32,000 nt of DNA from Candidatus Omnitrophota bacterium (GCA_963662715.1 OY759724.1:2940001-2972000), one strand, 5' to 3'; positions 4,038 to 28,959 are shown, numbered from the stretch's first letter. The notes: generated by a model not told the origin, from the letters alone. Numbers and translations are program-made.

Positions 4038-5270
4038 ATGGACTTGAAGAATAGTCAACAAAGCAAGATCAGAATGAAACAGGAAAAGGTTAAAAAAGAA
4101 CTGCAGGATGAATATGCCTGCCAGATGGATTCGCTTAAACAGCGGGATGACTTTGAACCCGGGTTCGAATACTTTCTTGATATCCTCACTTTGCTTATTT
4201 TTCCAGCCAAACTGAAAGACAGAATGCAGGCTCCCTTAGCCGGGCTTTACTGCATTCAGGCTCCCTTGGAACTGTTTCATGCGTTGGGGTTTCATCCCGT
4301 TAGGTTCTGTCACGGGTCATTGGCTCTCCAGAAGCTTTCCGCCGCTTCTCTCCCGGCTTTGGCTTGCCCGATGATCAAATCCTGTTTAGGGTCGTTTCTT
4401 TCGGAGGAATCTTTGGAAAAAATTTGTGACGTCCTGATCGTGCCTACAACATGCGACTGGAATACCAAAATACCTGAACTGATAGGGGCAAATCTCCGGA
4501 GTCCCTATGTGATGGAACTTCCCCATCTGAAAGACAGTGCACGGGGGAAAAAACGCTGGCAGGAGGAGATTCATGAATTAAAGAATTATCTGCAGAAAAT
4601 ATCCGGAAGGAAACTTGAACGGCAGCGTCTCTGGACATCCGTGCAGACCTACATGCGGGCCTGGGAGGTTTTAGGCCGGATTCTTGAACTGCGGAGAAAC
4701 CAGCAGCTCTCAGGGACCTGGAGCCTCATTTTGACCAATGCTTTTCTTGTCGACAAGGTGGAAAACTGGACGGAGAATGTTCAGCATTTTCTAAAAAAAC
4801 ATCAGCCGCGACCCAACAGTGATCCCGCTGTATTCCTGGCCGGATCTCCGGTCTTTTTCCCATATTTGAAAATCACGGAATTAATCGAGGAAGCCGGTAT
4901 GTTCATCAAGGCCGATGAGCTCTGCACATCGGAACGGATTCTGGCGAGTTCCGTTCCGGACGATCTTTCTGAATACGGCCTGTTGAAGGCCCTTGCGGAC
5001 AAATGTCACCGGGGCTGCAGCTGTCCCACATATGCGGACAATCACCGGCGAATCAACACGGTTATGCATGCCATGCGTAAGAGTAATATCAAAGGGGTTG
5101 TTTATCATGTTCTCAAAGGATGCCATCCTTACGACATAGAAAGTTTTGTTTTTGAAAAAACCGTCAAAGAAAACGGGTTCCATTTTCTGAAAATAGAAAC
5201 CGGCTATTCCAAAGAAGACAGACAAAATATTTTAGCCCGCTTGGAGGCTTTTAAGGACACAATCGGTTGA
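4038..5270 (+). CDS. BcrC/BadD/HgdB-superfamily protein (2-hydroxyacyl-CoA dehydratase D-component / double-cubane-cluster-protein-like)
   Basis: About 410 aa. Family-typical segments are VPTTCDWNTK, DELCTSER, CHRGCSCPTYAD and VVYHVLKGCHPYD...FLKIETGYSKED. ATG at 4038 follows AAAAAGG, whereas the ORF track starts at GTG 4029. The gene lies directly upstream of a cognate-type activase. Confidence 0.75.
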   Translation: MDLKNSQQSKIRMKQEKVKKELQDEYACQMDSLKQRDDFEPGFEYFLDILTLLIFPAKLKDRMQAPLAGLYCIQAPLELFHALGFHPVRFCHGSLALQKLSAASLPALACPMIKSCLGSFLSEESLEKICDVLIVPTTCDWNTKIPELIGANLRSPYVMELPHLKDSARGKKRWQEEIHELKNYLQKISGRKLERQRLWTSVQTYMRAWEVLGRILELRRNQQLSGTWSLILTNAFLVDKVENWTENVQHFLKKHQPRPNSDPAVFLAGSPVFFPYLKITELIEEAGMFIKADELCTSERILASSVPDDLSEYGLLKALADKCHRGCSCPTYADNHRRINTVMHAMRKSNIKGVVYHVLKGCHPYDIESFVFEKTVKENGFHFLKIETGYSKEDRQNILARLEAFKDTIG

Positions 5271-16255: not shown

Positions 16256-17233
16256 TTGAATATTAACGACGGAGTTATAAAACCCTGTTTTTTCCTGATC
16301 CTTTCTTTATCTCTTTTTCTGGGCCAGCCTGCTCCGGCCCAAAGCGACCAAGACCTGGAATATCTTAAATCTCTTTCCCGGCAAACCACCTTTTTTGCCG
16401 AACAGGAATACTCGCTGATTTTGGATAAAGGCCGGGATTGCTGGCCGGATGCGGATACCCTTAAAGTCCGCATGGTTTTTGCAAATAAAACTGTTTTTGA
16501 AAAAAATTTCCCGGCGAAGTTTCCTCTTAAAGTTGATTTTCAATATCCCCAGCTCAAACCGGGGGTTATCGCTGATCCGCTTCTTATCATTACGGCTTTT
16601 TCGCAGGAAGAGATGCTGAAAGGGATTTATCAAAAACAGCTGTTTTTTTTCCCGCAAAAGCAGAGCCCTGCTCCGGGACTTTATACGGAGGAGATCGGGA
16701 TTTTCGATCAAACCGGAGAGGGACTTTTAAAGAACAGTCTGCAGGAAATGGGAATCCCTTTTACGGAAATTTATGAGTTTTCTGATTTCAACGGGCCGTG
16801 GATTGTTGGCTCAGGACTCGATTTTTCAAACAATTATTCGCTCTTTGAAGAGATGCTGGAAGCTTTTTCCAAAGGAACGTCCCTGCTGATTTTAGCGCCC
16901 CTGGAAGGCGAATTCCCCTGGCCGGATATGAAAAAAATAACCCGGGTCATTTTCTCGGACGAGAGTATTGTGGCCGATTATGATAAACACCTGAACCTGC
17001 TGACGGACGGGATGAACGGAACAGAGGGGCATGTAACGTTTCAGGTTGGAAGCAACGGGGAAAGCAGTGTCATCAAATGCACCGGGGACCGCCAAGGATA
17101 CAACTGGCTGGAATTTCAGACCCCGGAATCCCGCATGATTTTTCTGGGATGGAATTTGCCGGCATACACCGGGAAGAACCCGACCATGTTCATGCTGTTG
17201 AATCGTATATTAACTCAAGAAGAAAAAAAATGA
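16256..17233 (+). CDS. Secreted hypothetical protein
   Basis: TTG start after GAGAGG. Signal peptide CFFLILSLSLFLGQPAPA|QS. I recognise no family. The stop lies 10 nt before the next gene. Confidence 0.55.
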   Translation: MNINDGVIKPCFFLILSLSLFLGQPAPAQSDQDLEYLKSLSRQTTFFAEQEYSLILDKGRDCWPDADTLKVRMVFANKTVFEKNFPAKFPLKVDFQYPQLKPGVIADPLLIITAFSQEEMLKGIYQKQLFFFPQKQSPAPGLYTEEIGIFDQTGEGLLKNSLQEMGIPFTEIYEFSDFNGPWIVGSGLDFSNNYSLFEEMLEAFSKGTSLLILAPLEGEFPWPDMKKITRVIFSDESIVADYDKHLNLLTDGMNGTEGHVTFQVGSNGESSVIKCTGDRQGYNWLEFQTPESRMIFLGWNLPAYTGKNPTMFMLLNRILTQEEKK

Positions 17234-17243
17234 GGAGGCTTAA

Positions 17244-18176
17244 ATGAAAAAGAATATTCTAACCATCTTGCTGGGGGTGGCGATACTGACTTGTTTTTTC
17301 GTGAAAATGGTCTCTGCCGAAGACATGTATCCTCTCGCGATCTTGTCTTTTGAAGAACGGGGAGCCGGGTTGAAAGGTCAAGGGGCCAATGTCCGGGACC
17401 TGTTATTCGCGAATCTGATTGAAAACCCCAAGCTTCTTATTGTTGAGCGTTCCGAACTGGACAAAATTCTGGATGAATCGGAACTGAATCTCTCCGGGAA
17501 TGTTTCGGCTGATCAAGCCACCCAAATAGGCCAGTTAACCGGGGCCAAAATCATTGTCACAGGGTCCATATTCAAGGTTGACAACAATACCCATATCGTG
17601 GCCAAAATCATCAGTACTGAAACGAGCAAAATGTTGGGGAAGAGCGTTAAGGGGGCGGAAGGTCTTGACGTTTTAGTGGGGCAACTGGCCCGGGAAGTCA
17701 ACACGGCTATCAATGAATCTGCCGAAAGCCTTTTGCCGCCTCCGGTTGATAAGCGCCAGAGCATCGAGAAGATTCAAAAAATGATCGAGGGCAAACAGCT
17801 TCCCGTGATCTCCGTGTCCATTCCCGAAATGCATCTCAGCCAGGCAGTTCCCGACCCGGCGGCAGAAACCGAGATTACCTACATTTACAAAGAAGTCGGC
17901 GGATCGATCATAGACGCCGGTACAGGAGATATCTCGAAAGTGGACTATAAAGTCGTGGGGGAAGGGTTCAGTGAATTTTCAACCCGTATTAAAAATCTTG
18001 TAAGCGTGAAGGCCCGGTTAGAAGTGAAAGTCTTGAATAAAGAAGGCCATGTCGTTGCCGTAGACCGCCAGACATCGGTTAAAGTTGATTTGAATGAAAT
18101 GCTGGCCGGAAAAGCGGCCCTGCAGGAAGCGGCGGCCATGATCGCAGAACGCATTATTCCCAAAATGGCTCAGTAA
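17244..18176 (+). CDS. Secreted protein with an N-terminal CsgG/LpoB-like module
   Basis: SD GAGGAGG and a signal peptide. LAILSFEERGAG...LLFANLIENPKLLIVERSELDKILDESELNLSG...IGQLTGAKIIVTGSIFK is the pattern typical of CsgG-fold periplasmic or lipoprotein modules. The C-terminal half is unassigned. Confidence 0.65.
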   Translation: MKKNILTILLGVAILTCFFVKMVSAEDMYPLAILSFEERGAGLKGQGANVRDLLFANLIENPKLLIVERSELDKILDESELNLSGNVSADQATQIGQLTGAKIIVTGSIFKVDNNTHIVAKIISTETSKMLGKSVKGAEGLDVLVGQLAREVNTAINESAESLLPPPVDKRQSIEKIQKMIEGKQLPVISVSIPEMHLSQAVPDPAAETEITYIYKEVGGSIIDAGTGDISKVDYKVVGEGFSEFSTRIKNLVSVKARLEVKVLNKEGHVVAVDRQTSVKVDLNEMLAGKAALQEAAAMIAERIIPKMAQ

Positions 18177-18226
18177 GCCCGGATATGCTGGCTCACACCA
18201 GATAAGGCAGAGCGAACACAACTTTT

Positions 18227-21200
18227 ATGTTTGGAATTAATAAATTCATAAAATTTTTTCTAATTATCATTTGTATTGCTGTTATTCCTGCTGTCGGGGC
18301 TGCCCAGCCGGCTGAGCATGTCCCGAAAGAACCTGTCAGTCTGGCGGTTATCCCCGGGGCAGGGGAGAGACAGCCGTCTGATTTGGTGATAGCCAATTTA
18401 GAAGTCCATTTATCCTCTTTGCCGGATGTCTCTTTGGTCGAAAGAAGCCTCATTAATAAGGTTCTTCAGGAAATTCATTTAGGGGAATCAGGACTGCAGG
18501 ATAAAAAACAGGCCGTCACAATAGGTCAACTGGTTGCGGCTGACATTCTGGTTTTTGTGAAAAAAGGACGCCCTTCCCTGGAACATAAGGAGCAGATAAC
18601 ATCCGGAACAGACACGGATATTGTGCTTATCCGGCTTATGGAAACCCGGACAGGAATTATCCTCGGCTCCCTGTTGGAAGATGCAGAACGCCTGGAATCT
18701 GATCTCCCATCCATTCTCTCGCATGTTCAAACGGCCATCAACAAAGAAAAAATTCCTTTAGAAAACCGCAAACATATCGGTATCCTGGCCATAAAGAATA
18801 ATGAACCCGGGACAAGTCTTGACGGGGCAGCGGAAGCTTTGCAAATGTTTCTGGCCATCGATCTACCCAAGGCGCCGAATGTGATCATGTTAGACCGTGA
18901 CCATTTGCAGTATCTGCAGACCGAAAGAGCCCTAACCGGGATGAATTTAAAACTGAAACACTCCACCTTTGTTGTTGAAGGAGGTCTGCAGTATGAAGAA
19001 GGGCGTCAGCAGATTATTGTTTCCGTTGTTCTCCGTTCCTTTTCCGGAACAAACAGCGCATCGGAAAAAATGACTTTCACCGTTGATAAAGACGACCTCC
19101 CCAAGGCCAGAGAGGTGATCGCCCAGGGCATCCTGCAAAAACTTGATGTGGAAAAGACTCCGGGACAATCTCCGGCGGCGGATAAAGAAGGAGAGCTTTT
19201 TTTAATGCAGGTGCCGCTTTATCTGTCCAGCGGTGATTTGGAGGCGGCTGTCAGATATGCCGAAGTGGCTTATGCTCTTCTCTCCAATCAAGAGGCCCGC
19301 TATTGGGCTGCCCGGGCATGGTATGCTCTTGGCTGGGATTTGGTTGATAAATCCATGGGCGATTCTTTTCGGAGTAGCGCGAGCGCTGTCAGAAGGACCA
19401 GAACCCTCGGAGATCAATTTTCACCAGGAGGGACTCAGGTTGTCCCCCTGCGCAGACCCGGTGAGGCAGGGAGAGCCGAGCGTTTCCAAAGCGGCAACTC
19501 CAATATCGTTCGAACAACAGAGCAGAGGCCCGGACAGCAGATAGAATTCTGGGGGGACGGGAGACAGGTTCGACAGCCAGCGGATTCTTCACGGCCAACG
19601 GCCGCGCGCATCGAAAAACCGCGTCGCCTTGAAGGACGGGAACATAATTCCTCCGGGGCAACATCATCCGGACAAGGAAGGGACCAGGATGCTTCCCAGA
19701 AAGACCAGAGAATCCGTTTTCTTTCCGCGTTAATCCGGTCTTACACCCTGATGGAAGAAATGCTTGCCGTTCATATCCGCGATTACGAGTCAGATACGCA
19801 AAAAAATATCGTCCTGCCCGACCCGCGGGATGATTTTGAGAATGTTTCCCGTCCGGAAGACCGCCAGCGCAACCTTGCCCTTAAGTACAGAATCGGCCGG
19901 GATGACACGGACGTTTTCTGGCTTTTTAAACAGCTGGTTCAAATTCGCAATAACCTAAATGAACAGCAACGTGATTTTTATTTGCAGCATTATACCGAAA
20001 GCCTCAAAGCCCAGACAGCTTACTGGCTGAGCTGGAAAGATAAGACGGAAATGATCAAGCAGTACTACCGTTATGACCCCAAACTATCCGCCCAAATCAT
20101 CCAGCAGGTCGTAGATGCCTTTATGAAAACCTCGGACGGGCCTCCGGCCCCTAGGCTCAAAGGTTTCATCGATATGCTGGCTCTGGGGCGCGGCAGAGCC
20201 TTGTCCCCGGAAGAAGAATATGTTTACCGGAAATTCACAACGCATGAGGATGTTTTTGTCCGCTTTGCCTCCCAGAAGCAGTTGATGCGTGCTGACCCGG
20301 TCGCTTATGCTCAAAAGGCTTTGAACATTTTTATTCAGGAATTCCCTTATGATCATCCCTACCGCACACTGGACAACGTGAGTCTTCTCCCTGACTTTGT
20401 GAAACCGGTGTTTCACCGTGCGGCTCTTTCCCATAGGCAAGAGATGCTCCTGTTAGCGGAAAAATTATTTGAACCGATGATAAGGAATCAGGACATGGTA
20501 CAACTGGTGGCCTGGCGGGACTGTTTCTGGCCGTATGTCAACGGATTGGAACTGGATGGAAAGAAAGAGGAAGCGCAAAGGCTTGTTCAGCAGGTGAGCA
20601 AGATTCTGGAACAGAAACAATATTTTAATTTTTCCAACGAAGCCAAGCGTCTGCGGGCGGAACTGGATTTGAAACTTGTACAACTTGGCGCTAAGCAATC
20701 TCCCAATACCGAACTGGAACGATATTTTTCTTTCCAGGAACGGCCTCATTATATCCGTCTGCGCCCGGAATTGGAGGCTCCGCGGCTGAATGATCCGCCG
20801 ATCGATGTTTCTTCCTTCAGTCCGATCCAGCTTCCCACGAAAGGGCTCAACACAACCACAAGCAGCCGGACCCGCGATGTTGTTAAGAACGGATTCTCCG
20901 GAAGCTCCTTTGCCAAAGGCTATACGCGGGTTATCGATGCGGAAGGCAATGAAACCTATACAATTATGGACATGGATATTCAGCGGGAAAAGACGAAAAA
21001 GAAAGGCGCCTGGCAGCAATACTCAACCCGCCGTATGCCGGTCCGGCTGGTCGCCACCCAGCAGATGGATATCAGAGGGAATCCACTCCAGGAGCGGATT
21101 CTCCAGAAGAATTATTGGATTGACCATGATAAAGTCTATATCCTGCAGCAGAGCCGGAGCAACGATGCCCTGCTCATAACAGCTTTTGAACAAAGCCTGC

Positions 21201-22234
21201 AGAATAATCAAAATAACCGCTGCTTAGGGGAAGTCTCGGTGCCTTTGGGCCATATTAAAGAATATTTCCCTTATTATGTTTCAGCCATGACAACGGGACC
21301 GGAAGCCCTTTACGTCGGGACAGCAGGAGGGCTTATCGTTTTTCCCAAAAAGGGAGGAAAAATTTTTCAAAACACTTCGCAATTCAGTTCCCTGCACCGC
21401 AGATATGAACCGTACTATCCGGATAAAAAAGAGAACACAAGCCCTCCCAATGCTTCCGGACAGGCAAAGTTGCTGACGGAAAAAGACGGTCTTCCGGATA
21501 ATAAAATATTGTCCCTGGCTTATTGTCAGGGGAAACTTTACATGGGCCTCGGCCCTTTGGCCGAGACACAGATGGGGTTAGTCGGCAATTGCGGATTTGC
21601 GGCTTATGATCCCGAAACAGGGTCCTACGAACTTATTGCCTCCAGCCGTTCTATGGAAAAACGTAATGCCCTTGAACAGGGAGACAGTTATCAAATCACG
21701 ACGATTTTAGGGGATGAAAAACGGAACTGTCTATGGCTGGGGCTCTCCGGCAATCCGGACTATAACGGGATCTGGCGGTATGATATGGAAACCGGCCGGC
21801 TCAAACGTATCCTTAAAGAGGACTTCTCCCTGCAGGATATGCGCTGGGCCGGCAGTAAAATTCTCTACTTAATGACCCAGACGGGGATTGTTCAATTTGA
21901 CCCGGACACGTCGACCCGGACATGGCTGTTGGGACAAATAGGTTCTGCTTTAAGCGGTCTACAGGGACCTCACCCGCCTAAAAATTTTTCTGGCCAACCG
22001 CTTTGCGGGCATCCGGAGACCCGTTTGTGGCCTTTTGCCATGAGGGATGACGATCTTTTTACTGTGAGCTGGGATGGTTATGACGTTCTTTTACACCGCA
22101 AAGGACAGGAAGCTGTGGGAAAAAGTGTCTTTGACCAGAGAGCCACCGCCGTTGAGTTTAAGGCCTTTATCGATGCCAATGACGAGGGCGTTTGGCTGAT
22201 CACCCAATATGGAAATGTCTACCTGATTCAATAA
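18227..22234 (+). CDS. Giant (1335 aa) secreted multidomain protein: two CsgG/LpoB-like modules, a disordered R/Q/S/G-rich insert, a helical/TPR-like region and a C-terminal beta-propeller
   Basis: One uninterrupted ORF with a signal peptide (IAVIPAVGAA|QP). Module 1 is LAVIPGAGE...VIANLEVHLSSLPDVSLVERSLINKVLQEIHLGESG...IGQLVAADILVFV. Module 2 is IGILAIKNNEPG...NVIMLDRDHLQYLQTERALTG. The C-terminus has Reg_prop-like strings (DGLPDNKILSLAYCQGKLYMG, CLWLGLSG...GIWRYD). Confidence 0.8.
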   Translation: MFGINKFIKFFLIIICIAVIPAVGAAQPAEHVPKEPVSLAVIPGAGERQPSDLVIANLEVHLSSLPDVSLVERSLINKVLQEIHLGESGLQDKKQAVTIGQLVAADILVFVKKGRPSLEHKEQITSGTDTDIVLIRLMETRTGIILGSLLEDAERLESDLPSILSHVQTAINKEKIPLENRKHIGILAIKNNEPGTSLDGAAEALQMFLAIDLPKAPNVIMLDRDHLQYLQTERALTGMNLKLKHSTFVVEGGLQYEEGRQQIIVSVVLRSFSGTNSASEKMTFTVDKDDLPKAREVIAQGILQKLDVEKTPGQSPAADKEGELFLMQVPLYLSSGDLEAAVRYAEVAYALLSNQEARYWAARAWYALGWDLVDKSMGDSFRSSASAVRRTRTLGDQFSPGGTQVVPLRRPGEAGRAERFQSGNSNIVRTTEQRPGQQIEFWGDGRQVRQPADSSRPTAARIEKPRRLEGREHNSSGATSSGQGRDQDASQKDQRIRFLSALIRSYTLMEEMLAVHIRDYESDTQKNIVLPDPRDDFENVSRPEDRQRNLALKYRIGRDDTDVFWLFKQLVQIRNNLNEQQRDFYLQHYTESLKAQTAYWLSWKDKTEMIKQYYRYDPKLSAQIIQQVVDAFMKTSDGPPAPRLKGFIDMLALGRGRALSPEEEYVYRKFTTHEDVFVRFASQKQLMRADPVAYAQKALNIFIQEFPYDHPYRTLDNVSLLPDFVKPVFHRAALSHRQEMLLLAEKLFEPMIRNQDMVQLVAWRDCFWPYVNGLELDGKKEEAQRLVQQVSKILEQKQYFNFSNEAKRLRAELDLKLVQLGAKQSPNTELERYFSFQERPHYIRLRPELEAPRLNDPPIDVSSFSPIQLPTKGLNTTTSSRTRDVVKNGFSGSSFAKGYTRVIDAEGNETYTIMDMDIQREKTKKKGAWQQYSTRRMPVRLVATQQMDIRGNPLQERILQKNYWIDHDKVYILQQSRSNDALLITAFEQSLQNNQNNRCLGEVSVPLGHIKEYFPYYVSAMTTGPEALYVGTAGGLIVFPKKGGKIFQNTSQFSSLHRRYEPYYPDKKENTSPPNASGQAKLLTEKDGLPDNKILSLAYCQGKLYMGLGPLAETQMGLVGNCGFAAYDPETGSYELIASSRSMEKRNALEQGDSYQITTILGDEKRNCLWLGLSGNPDYNGIWRYDMETGRLKRILKEDFSLQDMRWAGSKILYLMTQTGIVQFDPDTSTRTWLLGQIGSALSGLQGPHPPKNFSGQPLCGHPETRLWPFAMRDDDLFTVSWDGYDVLLHRKGQEAVGKSVFDQRATAVEFKAFIDANDEGVWLITQYGNVYLIQ

Positions 22235-23264: not shown

Positions 23265-23294
23265 TTGGCCCTACCCCGGGAGTTATGATATAAT
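23265..23294 (+). promoter_or_regulatory. Sigma70-like promoter candidate for the peptide/CPBP/radical-SAM operon
   Basis: The -35 is TTGGCC (23265-23270), the spacer is 18 nt and the -10 is TATAAT (23289-23294). It lies about 38 nt upstream of the small ORF. Confidence 0.35.
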
Positions 23295-23331
23295 TTTTTT
23301 GTCAGCGGTTTTAAAACAAAAGGGGAAATAA

Positions 23332-23496
23332 ATGAAGATTTATTCAGGGAGCTTAAAAGAACCCCCGGGCACTTTCCTGCATGCCGGATATTTATCGGCA
23401 GCGAATGAGAACGCGATCTTTGTTAAAACACCGATCGTATTATCGGCACTGCTTGTCTTATTATTACTTCTTAAAAAAATATTTCGTAAACCGTAA
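23332..23496 (+). CDS. Unannotated 54-aa peptide: candidate RiPP precursor or protease substrate
   Basis: Not in the ORF track because it is under 60 aa. ATG follows AAAAGGGGAAATAA. My hand translation is MKIYSGSLKEPPGTFLHAGYLSAANENAIFVKTPIVLSALLVLLLLLKKIFRKP*. The C-terminus is a hydrophobic helix plus a basic tail. The stop lies 21 nt before the CPBP gene. Confidence 0.55.
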   Translation: MKIYSGSLKEPPGTFLHAGYLSAANENAIFVKTPIVLSALLVLLLLLKKIFRKP

Positions 23497-23517: not shown

Positions 23518-24240
23518 ATGAACCATGGTTGTTTAAAAAGAATGAGCTCTTCAACACAGGAGCTCTTTTTTATTTGGTTCGTTCTGCTGGTTTATGTCTT
23601 TTTATTTTACGGGATATGCAAGCTAACGACAGGTTTTTACTCTTGGCCAAGACTGCTTCTTCCGAATGCCTGGCTTTTCTTGGCATCCCTGTTATGGATC
23701 AGGCGGAAATCCACAACGTATTTTGCCATAAAACATATCCAAAATACCAAGGAGTTGTTTGTCCTGGGCACCGGGAGCGTCATACTTATGGTCTTTTTAA
23801 ATCAATATCCCGTGAAAGAGAGCCATCATGCCGTAATCCCTCATTTATTGTTAAAATTCATTTTCCTGGCCGCGATCGCCTCTATTTGTGAAGAGGTCTT
23901 TTTCCGGGGGATCATGTTGAATTCCCTAAAGAAATATTTCAACAACGGAATCATCTCTCTATTACTAACATCCGTTATATTTGCTTATCTCCATCTGTCC
24001 CAGGGGACTGTCGTTTTTATGCAAATGTTCATTTTGTCGGTTATATTATGCCGTTATACTCTGGTCAGCAAAAATATCTACGGGGCTTCGGTCATTCACC
24101 TCTGCTGGAACACCGTATATTACAATCAGTTTATCCTTGGCCTCAGTCAAAAACTGATTTTCACCTGTTGTGCCGTTATGACGTTCACCGTTTTCGTTTA
24201 TATTTTGTTTTCGGCAGAAAAGCATGAAAAAAATCATTGA
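23518..24240 (+). CDS. CPBP-family intramembrane glutamic endopeptidase (CAAX protease/Abi family)
   Basis: Polytopic, with the three family motifs: EEVFFRG (EExxxR), FAYLH (FxxxH) and HLCWN (HxxxN). Confidence 0.8.
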   Translation: MNHGCLKRMSSSTQELFFIWFVLLVYVFLFYGICKLTTGFYSWPRLLLPNAWLFLASLLWIRRKSTTYFAIKHIQNTKELFVLGTGSVILMVFLNQYPVKESHHAVIPHLLLKFIFLAAIASICEEVFFRGIMLNSLKKYFNNGIISLLLTSVIFAYLHLSQGTVVFMQMFILSVILCRYTLVSKNIYGASVIHLCWNTVYYNQFILGLSQKLIFTCCAVMTFTVFVYILFSAEKHEKNH

Positions 24241-25621
24241 AACCCGGTCGCTTTATTTTAAAAAGCCTTCCTTCAGAGATATCAGGGGAACATCCTGTTT
24301 GTTGATATGGGGGGATTTGGGGCAGTGGCTTATCGTTGATTCGGAGTTTTTAGACTTTCTTGACACATATGCATCCGGAGACTCCCTGAAAAACCATATC
24401 ACGAAATATATTCAAAGGAAAGGCTTGGAGCCCCGGAAGCCCTTTATCACGGCCCTGAAAAAGAACGCCGAGGAATTGTTCAGCCGGAATATCCTTTCCC
24501 ATTCCGGCACAGCCTTCAGTAAAAAACCGGAGGGAAGGGATATCGCCAATATAACAATTAACCTGAACAATGACTGCAACTTGAAATGTTCCTGGTGTTA
24601 CAATACGAAAAGGCAGACCCCGGAAATGCCAATACAAAAAATGACCCAAGCTATCGACAAAGGCAAAAGATTTTTTTCGAAAAATGCCTCCTTTTTTATC
24701 TTGGGGGGAGAACCCTTTATGAATCAGGAAAGATTGCTTGCGGCGGTGCAGTATGGATTAAAAAGCTTTCGAATGCCTGTTTTAGTGTCAACAAATGGGA
24801 CTTTAATCAAGAAAGAAGTCGCAAGGAAACTTGCCGCAAAGAATCTCCAGATTCAAATTTCCCTGGACAGCCCCTATGAAGAGAAACATGATGCCGTCCG
24901 GGGAGCCGGATCTTACCGGAAAGCCGTGAGAGGGGTCAAGATTCTCGTCGATGCTGGTGTTTATACCGTGTTGTCCATGGTCTATACCCGTGATAATTAT
25001 CATGATATTGAGGAATACTTTCGTTTAGCGGAAACTTTCAACGTGAATGAAGTGCGTTTTATCCCGCTGCGCCTGATTGGCCGGGGACTGGGCTTTAAGG
25101 AACTCATGCCGAATCAAATTTCGGTTTTCCGGCATCTCATCCAGTTGCTTAAAAAACATCCGGGCTTTTTCCGCCTTTTAAAAAGGGATTTCTTCACCAT
25201 CGCCATCAATAAATGCCGTTACTCGCAAACCGGTACGAATTGCGGATTGGGACGAAAAGTTATTTTTGTCGATGCTGACGGTAAAGTCTATCCCTGTCCC
25301 AATTTTGTCAAGGAAAGTTTTTTGTGCGGAGACCTGAACCGAACGGACCTGGGGGACATCTTGAAAACATCGCCATTCCTAGATGATCTGCAAAACCGGT
25401 ATAATATAACGCTATATTCAAAATGCCGGGATTGTCATTTCCGTTTCTGGTGTTCCGGGGACTGCCGGGCCGAAGCCCTGGCTGTGTCAAAATCACATTT
25501 AGCTCCGTCCCCGCACTGCCAAGAATTACAGTCTCTCTATAAAGAGATGTTCTGGTTAATCGGGGAAGGATATGTTAAGAATTTCTACCGGGATTATGCC
25601 CACGGCTTATCGTTTATCTGA
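24224..25621 (+). CDS. Radical SAM/SPASM-domain peptide-modifying enzyme with an N-terminal RRE/PqqD-like extension
   Basis: CX3CX2C motif CNLKCSWC (Cys118/122/125, nt 24575-24598). GGEPF. SPASM cysteines CGLGRKVIFVDADGKVYPCPNF and CRDCHFRFWCSGDCRAE. About 105 aa precede the rSAM core. The start overlaps the CPBP gene by 17 nt. Confidence 0.9.
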   Translation: MKKIIETRSLYFKKPSFRDIRGTSCLLIWGDLGQWLIVDSEFLDFLDTYASGDSLKNHITKYIQRKGLEPRKPFITALKKNAEELFSRNILSHSGTAFSKKPEGRDIANITINLNNDCNLKCSWCYNTKRQTPEMPIQKMTQAIDKGKRFFSKNASFFILGGEPFMNQERLLAAVQYGLKSFRMPVLVSTNGTLIKKEVARKLAAKNLQIQISLDSPYEEKHDAVRGAGSYRKAVRGVKILVDAGVYTVLSMVYTRDNYHDIEEYFRLAETFNVNEVRFIPLRLIGRGLGFKELMPNQISVFRHLIQLLKKHPGFFRLLKRDFFTIAINKCRYSQTGTNCGLGRKVIFVDADGKVYPCPNFVKESFLCGDLNRTDLGDILKTSPFLDDLQNRYNITLYSKCRDCHFRFWCSGDCRAEALAVSKSHLAPSPHCQELQSLYKEMFWLIGEGYVKNFYRDYAHGLSFI

Positions 25622-25726
25622 TAATTCAGGTGCAATGAAAATAGTGTCAGCGACCGGGGATATCCTTACAGGGTAAAAATCATTTTATTGACCATAAGCA
25701 AAAAATCTGATAAAAATTTTAATGTT

Positions 25727-26395
25727 ATGCGTATTTTGATTGTTGAGGATGAAAAAAAATTAGCAAGTGTGATCCGCAGGAGCCTCAAAGAAAAAGATTA
25801 TGCTGTCGACATTGCGCATGATGGCAATGAAGGACTGTTTCTCGCTGAGGTCAATCCGTATGATTTAATCATATTGGATATTATGCTGCCCCAAAAAGAC
25901 GGTATCTGTATTTGCCGTGCCTTAAGGAGGAAGAAAAACGACGTTCCCATTTTAATGTTAACGGCACGAGATGATGTTGAGGATAAAATTACCGGCCTCG
26001 ATTCAGGAGCTGATGATTATCTCACAAAACCATTTGCCTTTGGCGAATTGCTGGCTCGGGTAAGGGCTTTAATACGGCGGAAACAAGACGTAAAAACAAC
26101 CAGATTAAAGGTCGCTGATTTGGAGTTGGATCAGTTGACCCATACGGTGAGCCGGGGGGGACGGATTATTGAACTCACAAGTACGGAATATGCCCTTCTT
26201 GAATACTTGATGCTCAATGCCAATCAAGTCGTCACGCGGACAATGATATCAGAACATGTCTGGAATGATGATTTTGATACTTTCTCAAACGTCATTAATG
26301 TTTACATTAACTACCTCCGGAAAAAAATCGACAACCATTTTGAAAAAAAGCTGATCCACTCCATAAGAGGCACCGGATATATTTTAAAAGAATAA
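25727..26395 (+). CDS. OmpR-family response regulator (CusR-like)
   Basis: MRILIVEDE, DLIILDIMLP, LTARD and GADDYLTKPFAFGELLARVRALIRR form the receiver. A winged-helix output ends in IRGTGYILKE. ATG at 25727 is preferred over the TTG at 25688 in the ORF track. Confidence 0.9.
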   Translation: MRILIVEDEKKLASVIRRSLKEKDYAVDIAHDGNEGLFLAEVNPYDLIILDIMLPQKDGICICRALRRKKNDVPILMLTARDDVEDKITGLDSGADDYLTKPFAFGELLARVRALIRRKQDVKTTRLKVADLELDQLTHTVSRGGRIIELTSTEYALLEYLMLNANQVVTRTMISEHVWNDDFDTFSNVINVYINYLRKKIDNHFEKKLIHSIRGTGYILKE

Positions 26396-26403
26396 TCCCA
26401 ACT

Positions 26404-27882
26404 ATGCATATAAGATCGATTCGTTTTAAGACGACATTGCTTTATTCGGGAATCCTGTTGGGGATTCTTCTCGCCTATAACAGTGTGCTTTATTTTTCTC
26501 TTCGTTCCATTTTAGTGAGGGATGTTGATGAAGAACTGAAAATAAAAGCCGGTGAGATTTCCAATATTCTGCTGGCCTACGAAAAAATAAAGAATACGTC
26601 TTTGCACCCCATGAGTGTCCTCGAAAATCTTCTGCAAAAACATGGTGTTTTGCCGGATAGGGCTGTCATCGTTGACGATCTCTGGCGTTCAAACTTTAAG
26701 ACTTTAAAGCTGAAAGAGGACTATATCAACATCCTTAATGTTTCCGGGCGTTCTCTCCTGCATTCGAACAATGTGACACCGGGAATAAAAGATTTAATAT
26801 CTGAACAGTTCGGCTTTTCGAACAATGAAGTTTATTGTGGAACTGTAGAAAAAAGGTCTTTAAAAGTACGGGTCATTAATCTGCCGTTCATATATAAGCA
26901 CAATCTGCCCTTAACGATTCAGGTCGCAACGCCCCTTAGACCCGTTCATCAATTTTTGGCCAGGTTTATGATGATCAGTTCAGGATGTATCCTCGGAACG
27001 ATCGCTTTAACGAGTTTCCTGGGAAGTTTCTTTGTCAAGCATATTCTAAGGCCCGTTGTGGCGGTGACGAGAACGGCAAACGATATCAGCCACATGGATC
27101 TGGCCAAAAGAATCTCTATGGGAGATACGGACATCGAGTTGAAACAGTTAATCGATTCATTCAATGCCATGCTTGAACGGCTGGAGAAATCTTTTATTCA
27201 TATCAATGAATTTAATTCTTATGTCGCCCATGAACTTAAAACACCTTTGGCGATTGTCAAAGGTGAGCTTGAATTAGCGATTGAACAACTTAAGGAGAAA
27301 AATGAAAATGACACAATCCTTTCTGACTGCCTGGAAGAGATCGACAGGATGATCAAGATCATCAAAGATCTTCTCTTTTTAGCAAAAATTGATTATAAAC
27401 CTCAAATATTAAAATTTGAAAAAATAAATTTTCAGAAATTTTTTGAGGAGATCATAGAGCACGGCACGATACTGGCATCTGAAAAAAAAATAAAATTGAC
27501 AGCAGATTCTTTAAAACTAAAGGAAACTTTAACCATTGATGCTGATAAAGTACACTTGCGACGTCTCTTTCTGAATATAATAACCAACGCAATAAAATAT
27601 ACTCCGGCTAACGGAAACATTCATTTATCTGTAAAGCGGGAAAAAGACCATTTGTTTTTTGATATCTCCGATACCGGAGAGGGGATTTCGGAAGAAAACC
27701 TGCAGAAAATATTTGATAAATTTTTCCGGGTGGATAAAGAGGAAACGACACAGAATGCGGGTTTTGGATTAGGCTTAAGTATTGCGCTTTCTATCGCTAA
27801 AGCCCACAAAGGGGATATAAAAGTCAAGAGCAAATTCAATGAAGGAACCACCTTTACCGTTATCTTGCCATTATCAACATAA
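26404..27882 (+). CDS. Sensor histidine kinase (2 TM, periplasmic loop, HAMP, HisKA, HATPase_c)
   Basis: H-box SYVAHELKTPLAIV, N-box NIITNAIKYTP, DTGEGIS and GFGLGLSIALSIAKAH. The start lies 8 nt after the regulator gene. Confidence 0.9.
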   Translation: MHIRSIRFKTTLLYSGILLGILLAYNSVLYFSLRSILVRDVDEELKIKAGEISNILLAYEKIKNTSLHPMSVLENLLQKHGVLPDRAVIVDDLWRSNFKTLKLKEDYINILNVSGRSLLHSNNVTPGIKDLISEQFGFSNNEVYCGTVEKRSLKVRVINLPFIYKHNLPLTIQVATPLRPVHQFLARFMMISSGCILGTIALTSFLGSFFVKHILRPVVAVTRTANDISHMDLAKRISMGDTDIELKQLIDSFNAMLERLEKSFIHINEFNSYVAHELKTPLAIVKGELELAIEQLKEKNENDTILSDCLEEIDRMIKIIKDLLFLAKIDYKPQILKFEKINFQKFFEEIIEHGTILASEKKIKLTADSLKLKETLTIDADKVHLRRLFLNIITNAIKYTPANGNIHLSVKREKDHLFFDISDTGEGISEENLQKIFDKFFRVDKEETTQNAGFGLGLSIALSIAKAHKGDIKVKSKFNEGTTFTVILPLST

Positions 27883-28082: not shown

Positions 28083-28223
28083 ATGTTTGAGATGATCATA
28101 ATGATAGCCTGGATTGTAGGTATTGTCTTGGGAATTATGTGGCTGTTCTTACCCTGGATCATGATTTCAAAAATTGATGAGGTTATCGAAGAGTTAAGGA
28201 AATTGAATGCCAAAAATATTTAA
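28083..28223 (+). CDS. Unannotated 46-aa small membrane protein (hypothetical)
   Basis: SD GGAGGGA lies 5 nt upstream of the ATG. My hand translation is MFEMIIMIAWIVGIVLGIMWLFLPWIMISKIDEVIEELRKLNAKNI*, giving one TM and an amphipathic tail. The stop lies 19 nt before the tandem-REC gene. Confidence 0.4.
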   Translation: MFEMIIMIAWIVGIVLGIMWLFLPWIMISKIDEVIEELRKLNAKNI

Positions 28224-28242
28224 GAGGGAGGAGGGTTTTGAC

Positions 28243-28959
28243 ATGGAAAAGATATTGATTGTCGATGATCAAGCGCGGATACGGGAAACCTTTGGCCGGG
28301 TATTAAGCAAGGACGGGTATTCCGTCTTCAAGGCCTCTGACGCCGATCACGCAAATGAGATTTTGAAGAGAGAAAAAATCGATTTGATGTTGCTCGACAT
28401 GAAAATGCCGGAAGTGGGAGGAGAAATTTTATGCGAAATAAAAAGGACATTTCATAAAGAAACGAAAGTCATTGTTTGCAGCGTTTATCCTTTGGATGAC
28501 CAAAAACAGATGATAGAAGGGGCCGATGATTATTTTGACAAATCCGAAGGGTTGCGTGTCCTCAGAGAAAAGGTTAGCCATGTCCTTAACCGTTCAGATC
28601 AAAAAAAAAGGCTCCTTATCATCGATGACGAACAAAAGGTAAGGATCCTTTACTCCATTATTTTGAATAAGGCTGGCTACCTGGTTAAAAGTTTCGGAGA
28701 TAATCAGACAGCGCTCAGTTATTTGAAACACACGGGAACTATGATCGATCTCTTGATTCTTGATTTAGCCATGCCTCAGATTGACGGGTGCTGTTTTTTC
28801 GAGATTATGAAAATAAGACATCCTAATACGAAAATACTCATTGCCAGTAATTATGGGCTCGACACCCAGAAATTTATGATTTTTGATGCGGATGATTATT
28901 TCGATAAAACACAAGGCAACGCTTTATTGCTTGGGAAAGTAAAAAAACTAATAGGATAA
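28243..28959 (+). CDS. Tandem receiver-domain protein (REC-REC, no output domain)
   Basis: ATG at 28243 follows GAGGGAGGAGGG. REC1 reads ILIVDDQ...LMLLDMKMP...ADDYFDKSEG. REC2 reads LLIIDDE...LLILDLAMP...ADDYFDKTQG. Both keep the acidic pocket, the acceptor Asp and the Lys. Confidence 0.8.
   Translation: MEKILIVDDQARIRETFGRVLSKDGYSVFKASDADHANEILKREKIDLMLLDMKMPEVGGEILCEIKRTFHKETKVIVCSVYPLDDQKQMIEGADDYFDKSEGLRVLREKVSHVLNRSDQKKRLLIIDDEQKVRILYSIILNKAGYLVKSFGDNQTALSYLKHTGTMIDLLILDLAMPQIDGCCFFEIMKIRHPNTKILIASNYGLDTQKFMIFDADDYFDKTQGNALLLGKVKKLIG

Follow-up and report, generated by a model that had tools for sequence, protein, structure and literature searches.

The C-terminal signals processed by bacterial proteases of the CPBP family are composed of a motif with an invariant Cys, a transmembrane segment (TM) and a cluster of Arg residues, and stand at the C-terminus of secreted proteins that are otherwise unrelated (Haft 2023). 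Rce1 cleaves only prenylated CAAX substrates, and myxosortase needs the Cys residues of the MYXO-CTERM signal (PMC11980579), while radical S-adenosylmethionine (SAM) enzymes with a SPASM domain form cross-links that join His-C2 to C-beta, Tyr-C3 to C-beta, or Tyr-C-beta to His-N (PMC11002830). Genes for both kinds of enzyme follow a small open reading frame (ORF) in a stretch of 32,000 nucleotides (nt) from Candidatus Omnitrophota bacterium (GCA_963662715.1 OY759724.1:2940001-2972000), referred to here as the window. The ORF (23332..23496, on the plus strand, as are the two enzyme genes and the flanking signals described below) encodes the 54-amino-acid (aa) peptide MKIYSGSLKEPPGTFLHAGYLSAANENAIFVKTPIVLSALLVLLLLLKKIFRKP, the tail of which had been interpreted, in what we call the sequence-only reading, as resembling a tripartite sorting signal and placed next to an intramembrane protease.

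The comparison with homologous loci given below leads to a different view, in which the locus appears to encode a new system of peptide maturation and not a C-terminal sorting signal of the classical kind. On comparative grounds, the ORF is placed as the minimal member of a family, so far undescribed, of proteins with a membrane anchor. Their layout is an N-terminal module with a conserved His-x-Gly-Tyr (HxGY) tag, a TM and a basic cluster, and they are associated with a radical SAM enzyme, their presumed modifying partner, usually with a CPBP gene nearby.

The N-terminal module and the membrane anchor

Reading of the ORFs beside homologous radical SAM genes indicated that the conserved part of the family is the N-terminus (residues 1-24) and not the tail, with copies that begin MKILAGSLEQAASAFLHAGYISA..., MHILASSLINVANTFLHAGYISA... 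or MRIEHQGYVEVQPVYQHAGYVSA... in different loci. The module recurs in approximately 100 proteins, each time from residue 1, and M1, H17 and Y20 are invariant in it, while G19, S22 and A23 are nearly so. In 95 non-redundant members, the information content reaches 5.1 bits at M1, 3.2 at I3, 4.2 at Y/F15, 5.5 at H17, 3.7 at G19, 5.2 at Y20, 2.7 at S/A22 and 3.1 at A23, and falls to 0.7 bits or less per position from residue 25 up to the TM. In the window peptide the module is MKIYSGSLKEPPGTFLHAGYLSAA (residues 1-24, 23332..23403), which may be divided into a putative leader of about residues 1-14 and a core, F15-x-H17-x-G19-Y20-x-S22-A23. It had been suggested that the N-terminal part of the peptide is the one modified by the radical SAM enzyme, and this agrees with the conservation of some 24 residues (2.7-5.5 bits at the key positions), which are presumably recognised and modified by it.

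The distribution of the module was established through a profile search that covered all of 1.84 billion cluster representatives (clusters at 50% identity) and returned 72 proteins at E <=0.001, each matched from residue 1-3. The H-x-G/A-Y motif is in register in 74/74 proteins inspected and His17 is found in 70/74; in these representatives, which are 62-261 aa long, the TM begins at about residue 35 and is followed by a second TM in 66 of the 74. A 54-column profile run against a 5.8-billion-protein index gave only five matches, its E-values being too harsh for so short a profile. The copies found in the loci themselves range from 54 to 460 aa, and forms of 54-96 aa without cargo occur in several clades, such as a 62-aa protein (P0125, locus L086) that is a similar minimal form in a locus without a CPBP gene. 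The family apparently derives mostly from Planctomycetes-like lineages in environmental metagenomes. The module has no model in Pfam or NCBIfam, no Pfam, NCBIfam, PADLOC or PHROG model covers either the module or the pairing of radical SAM enzyme and CPBP, and a search of the full-text literature on radical SAM together with CPBP, CAAX, SPASM or RiPP (ribosomally synthesised and post-translationally modified peptide) found nothing relevant.

The window ORF was recognised by a hidden Markov model (HMM) of the module from which its own sequence had been left out (28.1 bits, E 5e-8), and it is the sole match among 740 window ORFs, the next best reaching 5.6 bits; it also lies where the homologous loci carry their copy. 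Given this leave-one-out match, unique among the 740 ORFs, the window gene is taken to be a genuine member of the family, the shortest found, and not a chance frame. The exact 54-aa sequence is absent from a collection of 15 billion proteins, and the gene has thus not been called in public data, while the same collection does contain the CPBP as well as the radical SAM enzyme in a 440-aa call with a downstream start (P0001).

The second half of the peptide was largely as described beforehand, with a hydrophobic helix followed by KKIFRKP. The TM is IFVKTPIVLSALLVLLLLL (residues 29-47, 23416..23472), with a Kyte-Doolittle value of 2.61 over a 19-residue window, and the basic tail (residues 48-54, 23473..23493, net +4) is predicted to be cytoplasmic; the net charge before the hydrophobic segment is -1. 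The sequence-only reading had divided the last 24 residues into KTP (32-34), IVLSALLVLLLLL (35-47) and KKIFRKP (48-54), a composition that is correct for a tail that in fact has 23 residues.

A TM followed immediately by a basic cluster was found in 34/34 locus copies and in 74/74 database representatives, the general layout being the module, a linker of 5-116 aa, the TM and an R/K cluster directly after it. The mean net charge of the family is +0.1 before the first TM and +3.5 after it. The first position after the TM is R or K in 93/93 members by construction, since it was defined as that of the first K/R beyond the TM core, and the real signal in the cluster is the enrichment of R at the positions that follow. 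The helix and the basic cluster of the proposed tripartite tail are therefore family features, and it is the polar motif before the TM that is not a conserved unit: the alignment of small ORFs beside homologous pairs of CPBP and radical SAM genes, a check that had been suggested for this purpose, gave no signature motif before the TM, as each position from -32 to -18, counted from the basic residue after the TM, holds 0.7 bits or less, and KTP is not conserved across the family. Nor was a cleavage or signature motif found at the boundary of the first TM, where a loose G-x-G-W/F-P of the closest clade fails family-wide.

When the family is set against the definition of Haft (2023), the TM and the Arg-rich cluster are present, while the Cys motif and the C-terminal placement are not. 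Cys occurs at positions -32 to -18 in only 7/93 members, with none in the window peptide, no member begins with a signal peptide, the N-terminus being the conserved polar module, and the TM of most homologues lies within the protein, with a basic loop, a second TM and another 140-270 residues after it, the longest stretch beyond the last TM being 272 residues. Membership among the MYXO-CTERM, JDVT-CTERM or Synerg-CTERM signals was rejected because the homology is N-terminal, the TM is internal and has no motif before it, and the scores of the CPBP against the myxosortase (Mrt) models are below cut-off. The tail is thus best read as a membrane anchor, i.e., a C-terminal membrane follower, and not as a sorting signal.

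The long members of the family present architectures of their own. In L003:3078-4286, L007:441-1502, L009:3354-4343, L010:3178-4269, L015:6357-7448 and L021:1393-2775 the basic loop after the first TM leads into a second TM, beyond which lies a domain of 200-270 aa, and the motifs YGxDGWGxxF and SAGxDGxFxTxDD recur in the C-terminal domains of long forms. The PF08334 model (protein G of the type II secretion system) scores 24.2 bits on this domain in L010 (cut-off 21) and 19.2 in L009, which suggests that several long forms carry a weakly GspG/pseudopilin-like domain on a presumed radical-SAM-tagged membrane protein; no prepilin G|F...E cleavage motif was found in the long forms with the GspG-like domain. 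The C-terminal domain of L048 is a TPR.

The associated enzymes and the organisation of their loci

The gene that begins 21 nt downstream of the peptide gene (23518..24240) encodes a CPBP/Rce1-like glutamic intramembrane protease of 240 aa (PF02517, E 4.7e-19, 68.9 bits against a gathering threshold of 22.4), and it is followed by a radical SAM/SPASM enzyme of 465 aa (24224..25621; PF04055, 79.7 bits, PF13186, 40.2 bits, and PF13353), the start of which overlaps the CPBP stop by 17 nt. Both neighbours had been named beforehand, and the domain matches bear this out. The motifs of the CPBP are EEVFFR (125-130), FAYLH (155-159) and HLCWN (194-198), and as EExxxR, FxxxH and HxxWN are invariant at fixed spacing in 29/29 associated CPBPs, these look like active proteases. 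The window CPBP reaches no equivalog cut-off of NCBIfam, and all its scores against the myxosortase models are far below the respective cut-offs (MrtS 33.8/130, MrtJ 26/75, MrtC 18/195 and Mrt_core 24.4/100). A direct phmmer search of the CPBP against the PDB gave no match, and a word-index search with the CPBP matched itself alone.

The radical SAM enzyme carries CxxxCxxC at C118/C122/C125, which, together with seven SPASM cysteines (C340, C358, C401, C404, C410, C414 and C432), is invariant in 27 sequences. Its relatives include 298 proteins at E <=1e-20; among the 120 best the identity is 36-48%, with the weakest few going down to 29%, and at least ~117 relatives have 36% identity or more. 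The closest solved structure is CteB (5wgg), a sactisynthase that contains a RiPP recognition element (RRE), aligned from residue 35, and a profile of residues 1-105 has PqqD structures as its three best PDB matches (E 0.006, 0.057 and 0.077), with the whole winged helix aligned; the Pfam PqqD model reaches 17 bits in one homologue. The enzyme reaches no NCBIfam equivalog cut-off, all 25 matches shown being below, with MftC as the best (146 against 265 bits) in a comparison that covered MftC, StsB, CbpB, PapB, DynA, WgkB, the SCIFF maturase and others, and the C-terminal Val-Tyr of the precursor, the hallmark of mycofactocin, is absent from the window peptide. Given CxxxCxxC, the SPASM cysteines, the likeness to CteB and the profile with PqqD first, the enzyme fits a leader-binding peptide maturase, for which residues 1-14 of the module would be the leader and Y/F15-A23 the core. 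An inverted RiPP logic, which had been put forward for the peptide, is not apparent in this arrangement, as residues 1-14 look like the ordinary N-terminal leader of an RRE-bearing maturase with the core adjacent to it.

Genomic contexts were obtained through exact look-up, a genome scan and a metagenome scan, which together gave 57 loci with a radical SAM enzyme of ~200 bits or more against the window enzyme, and the six-frame ORFs of these loci were searched with an HMM for the module; the scan of genome contigs contributed one true relative, L001. A module-bearing ORF stands beside the radical SAM gene in approximately 36 of the 57 loci, either upstream of the CPBP gene or directly downstream of the radical SAM gene. 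The loci without a copy are mostly truncated contigs, of which L008, L012 and L038 still hold C-terminal fragments of the long form, and the module is truly missing from L013 and L016 and from the outlying L035, L037, L039, L040 and L047. As a negative control, radical SAM enzymes below 140 bits have neither module nor CPBP, the exception being L069, a family locus cut by the contig end. The module also occurs in tandem arrays of five copies in L056 (1201-4511), four in L030 (6277-9012), three in L027 (6324-8529) and three in L033 (2466-4250), in which paralogues of ~220-255 aa each lie downstream of a single radical SAM gene.

The association of the CPBP with the system, which had been proposed from the window locus, holds more widely, given that a CPBP gene lies directly upstream of the radical SAM gene in approximately 30 loci, usually overlapping its start, with the catalytic motifs kept. 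In one case (P0027, JGI 3300075153, 703 aa) the two are naturally fused, with ~25 residues from the last TM of the CPBP to the N-terminal domain, or RRE, of the radical SAM part. The gene just 5' of this fusion encodes 349 aa without a Pfam match and is the probable HxGY substrate of the fusion. Among the neighbours in the family loci, no further gene family recurs, and no transporter is conserved.

Some individual loci depart from the usual arrangement. In L009 there are ~600 nt between the HxGY gene and the radical SAM gene (4343-4950) in which no CPBP was detected, a gap that may hold a decayed or very divergent one. L013 (2326-4326) and L016 (3988-5825), where no HxGY gene is found, have in common a downstream secreted protein of ~185 aa (...WYQDMRLAC.DKRT...) and another of ~406 aa that starts with MS.D..IH..LR.APLFAG, which may represent a different type of substrate for the same enzyme pair. 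L039 (1973-3705) and L040 (6382-8105) have radical SAM relatives of ~240-250 bits with neither an HxGY gene nor a CPBP, followed by the ATPase and permease of an ABC transporter, and probably mark the boundary with a conventional family of exported RiPPs.

The flanks of the window cassette include several signal-like sequences. A Shine-Dalgarno-like AAGGGGA (23320..23326) was read directly 6 nt 5' of the ATG, and a promoter-like site (23265..23294) with TTGGCC, an 18-nt spacer and a TG-extended TATAAT has 10/12 matches, as a consensus match only, in a region where such matches are not enriched relative to shuffled sequence. A terminator-like hairpin with a T-run (23544..23575, the hairpin itself being 23544-23565), likewise a consensus match only, is formed by GAGCTC, 10 nt and GAGCTC, has an 8-bp stem with four GC pairs and the tail TTTTTTATTT, and lies 48 nt 3' of the peptide stop, within the initial ~20 codons of the CPBP gene. 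An attenuator that curbs read-through is one possibility, which would give more mRNA for the peptide than for the enzymes; alternatively, the CPBP start may be mis-assigned, with another ATG at 23542.

Further from the cassette, an OmpR-type response regulator and a HAMP histidine kinase (25688-27882) follow the radical SAM gene after 66 nt on the same strand, a pair that could regulate the cassette locally and that is not conserved with it in the other loci. Upstream, three co-directional genes (16256-22234) may form an envelope or secretion module: one encodes a protein of 325 aa without a family, another a CsgG-like lipoprotein of 310 aa (PF03783, E 7e-12), and a third a protein of 1335 aa, the N-terminus of which is weakly CsgG-like. 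A small hydrophobic ORF of 46 aa (28083-28223, MFEMIIMIAWIVGIVLGIMWLFLPWIMISK...) lies just upstream of, and overlaps, the gene for a double-receiver response regulator (28207-28959).

A candidate route of maturation and its alternatives

We consider it probable, with ample room for doubt, that the 54-aa ORF is a translated and dedicated substrate of the radical SAM enzyme, which is modified, anchored in the membrane and then cleaved by the CPBP. This model is built on gene order, the conservation of the family, co-occurrence, catalytic motifs, the fusion and the asymmetry of charge. In it, residues 1-14 of the module (M-x-I-x-x-x-S/G...) would be bound by the PqqD-like RRE of the radical SAM enzyme, and Y/F15-x-H17-x-G19-Y20-x-S/A22-A23 would receive a radical modification in the cytoplasm, before or during the membrane insertion of the substrate, most likely a side-chain cross-link of His17 and/or Tyr20. 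The TM and the basic cluster would then anchor the product with the N-terminus out and the C-terminus in, which leaves the modified N-tail in the periplasm. Where it is encoded, the CPBP would be docked to the radical SAM enzyme in the membrane and would most likely cleave the anchored substrate on the periplasmic side, a modify-then-cleave scheme like those of prenyl-CAAX and Rce1 or of MYXO-CTERM and myxosortase. From the observations listed we infer the modification of the module, its chemistry, the topology, and the cleavage by the CPBP together with its site. The cleavage might take place between the module and the TM, as first proposed, or after the leader, or not at all, and would release the modified N-terminal peptide or, in the long paralogues, the C-terminal domain. 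The picture drawn beforehand, of an N-terminal part modified by the radical SAM enzyme, a TM anchor and clipping by the CPBP, is in this respect plausible.

The predicted topologies are compatible with this scheme. The charge bias of the substrate, read through the positive-inside rule, predicts an N-out/C-in orientation, and this agrees with the fact that members with two TMs end in a weakly pseudopilin-like domain, which is normally periplasmic. For the CPBP, an N-in/C-in topology is predicted from the fusion and from the loop charges (mean numbers of Lys plus Arg in 15 CPBPs of 2.8, 1.2, 4.2, 1.0, 2.7, 0.0 ... 2.9), and as only ~25 residues separate the TM from the radical SAM domain in P0027, the C-terminus of the CPBP, and hence the RRE, would be at the cytoplasmic face. 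E125 and H159 lie on a helical hairpin with a basic, cytoplasmic turn. In the solved structure of MmRce1, the catalytic cavity opens on the side away from the termini (PMC5874806); the window CPBP resembles this protein in the distance from the Glu to the first His (34 and 33 residues, respectively) and in the single TM after the HxxxN helix. Given that the termini of the CPBP appear to be cytoplasmic, and are opposite the cavity in MmRce1, there is moderate support for a cavity that faces the periplasm, and the two predicted topologies would fit clipping at the outer face.

Candidate chemistries may be drawn from the known cross-links. Triceptide-type links from a ring to a C-beta would be compatible with Y/F15-x-H17 and Y20-x-S/A22, whereas H17-x-G19 is no triceptide site, because Gly has no C-beta, and a His-Tyr link such as that of dynobactin is another candidate. 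Since Rce1 needs prenylation and myxosortase needs Cys, it is a reasonable guess that cleavage here depends on prior modification.

Several points weigh against the model as a whole. Whole radical SAM subclades, those of L036, L042-45, L048, L053 and L086, have a substrate and a radical SAM gene with no CPBP nearby, so that the CPBP would not be essential to the core system; conversely, L013 and L016 have both enzymes and no recognisable substrate nearby. The orientation of the CPBP depends on a weak profile match to 4CAD (E 3.4, in the right register) and on the counting of TMs, a single-sequence AlphaFold2 model of it being unusable (predicted local distance difference test 51, predicted template modelling score 0.29). 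The RRE assignment is of moderate strength, as its best E-value is 0.006 and the window protein alone has no Pfam PqqD match. An N-out orientation would also require that an N-tail of 28-137 residues be translocated with no signal peptide after its modification in the cytoplasm, and the modification of the module and its chemistry are purely conjectural. Finally, since most members have 200-460 aa, "peptide natural product" is possibly the wrong frame.

The length of these members, together with their second TM and C-terminal domain, is what would be expected if the membrane-anchored protein were itself the end product and the HxGY module an N-terminal tag on varied cargo. The cross-link would then give the extracytoplasmic head a stable fold or a cofactor-like function, and the window gene would be a form without cargo. 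The differences among the C-terminal domains (weakly GspG-like in L010 and L009, a TPR in L048), the existence of clades free of CPBP and the lack of a conserved transporter all point the same way. However, the cargo-less forms recur in several clades, the tandem arrays resemble RiPP precursors, and an intact, translationally coupled and once-fused protease points to proteolysis in half of the family or more, so that an anchored end product seems to us possible and rather doubtful. A role of the CPBP other than processing was also considered, given that CPBP/Abi proteins act as immunity proteins in class II bacteriocin loci: it might protect the producer, or serve as a scaffold that holds the radical SAM enzyme at the membrane. 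The fusion and the overlapping genes couple the CPBP to the radical SAM enzyme and need not imply a link to the substrate, several clades do without the CPBP, and the TM is not accompanied by a conserved cleavage motif, all of which would suit such a role. The invariance of the three catalytic motifs in all 29 proteins at fixed spacing, the inferred orientation of the cavity, which matches the predicted side of the substrate N-tail, and the precedent of MrtX, an experimentally characterised bacterial CPBP that cleaves its substrate (PMC11980579), nevertheless make immunity or scaffolding an improbable function for it.

Less weight still is given to two further explanations. That the tail is a bona fide MYXO-CTERM, JDVT-CTERM or Synerg-CTERM signal for a CPBP of the myxosortase type would account for the TM with its basic cluster, for the dedicated operon in which a CPBP gene adjoins the peptide gene, an arrangement known from the JDVT-CTERM system, and for the weak matches between the CPBP and the models of MrtS and MrtJ. 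It is very hard to reconcile with a peptide that has no Cys, no motif before the TM and no signal peptide, with homology that is N-terminal, a TM that is internal in most homologues and Mrt scores far below cut-off, and we regard it as highly improbable. A chance ORF, or a module of anti-phage defence composed of an Abi-like CPBP and a viperin-like radical SAM enzyme, might be suspected from the absence of the ORF among public gene calls and from the PADLOC pVip models, which match the radical SAM core. This match, however, covers only the generic core (110-229) of an enzyme that has a SPASM and an RRE-like domain, PADLOC has no match for the CPBP or the peptide, and the module is conserved family-wide in a fixed register and genomic position, which leaves this explanation with hardly any credibility.

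Returning to a modified, anchored and cleaved substrate, this model may be extended to a self-exporting, membrane-anchored RiPP, in which an RRE-bearing radical SAM enzyme seated on the CPBP would cross-link His17/Tyr20, the TM would export the N-tail without a transporter, and the CPBP would cleave the modified form only, which would free a cross-linked peptide or unmask a pseudopilin-like protein. In this full form, which would make the system an N-terminal equivalent, dependent on a radical SAM enzyme, of the C-terminal sortase, exosortase and myxosortase systems, we think it rather unlikely to be correct.

Significance and comparison with known systems

If the proposed model is true, the locus would represent a new and fairly widespread maturation system, with at least 72 substrate clusters at 50% identity and ~300 relatives of the radical SAM enzyme, and one that joins radical SAM peptide chemistry to protein sorting by intramembrane proteases, fields that are usually separate. 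It would provide the largely orphan CPBP proteases of bacteria with a second type of client, besides the C-terminal signals that contain Cys. It would also suggest that a modified peptide can be exported without a dedicated transporter. Under the same model, a fixed tag of 24 residues with an invariant His and Tyr would be a clean target in which to look for a new radical SAM cross-link, and the window gene would be the most convenient test construct, because its 54-aa form is the smallest natural substrate.

The myxosortase systems (MYXO-CTERM/MrtX, JDVT-CTERM/MrtJ and Synerg-CTERM/MrtS) share with this locus, in the case of JDVT-CTERM, a CPBP encoded beside its presumed client, and more generally a client in N-out/C-in orientation, predicted in the present family, that is anchored by a TM and an Arg-rich cluster, as well as a cleavage, in the present family a presumed one, that probably depends on the prior modification of a side chain. 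They differ from it in that the conserved element is here N-terminal, with no invariant Cys or signature motif, no signal peptide and a mostly internal TM, in that the modifying enzyme would be a cytoplasmic radical SAM protein, and in that the CPBP is below all Mrt cut-offs. Rce1 and the prenyl-CAAX proteins have in common with it the PF02517 fold family, the catalytic residues and, as proposed here, the logic of modification before cleavage, whereas they differ from it in substrate, modification and compartment, and the direct match to 4CAD is weak (E 3.4). As for the anchor, the coat protein of phage Pf3 is a small membrane protein that is inserted in N-out/C-in orientation without a cleavable signal peptide, and it is similar in its uncharged or acidic N-tail, single TM and basic C-tail; many homologues in the present family have a longer N-tail, of up to ~137 residues, for which modification is presumed to come before insertion.

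The locus also resembles the RRE-dependent radical SAM/SPASM systems, such as sactipeptides (CteB), triceptides, dynobactin and mycofactocin, which have the same CxxxCxxC and SPASM cysteines, a PqqD-like N-terminal domain, putative in the present enzyme, a small and sometimes tandem substrate gene that adjoins the enzyme gene, and a short N-terminal recognition stretch beside an invariant aromatic/His motif. In contrast to these, the presumed substrate here is anchored by a TM with a basic cluster and in many cases is a membrane protein of 200-460 aa, the partner protease is an intramembrane CPBP instead of a peptidase of the soluble or ABC-fused kind, there is no conserved transporter, and the enzyme reaches no curated equivalog. 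Given these likenesses and differences, the system appears to be an RRE-dependent radical SAM/SPASM maturation pathway in which the substrate is, unusually, anchored in the membrane and the partner is an intramembrane CPBP.

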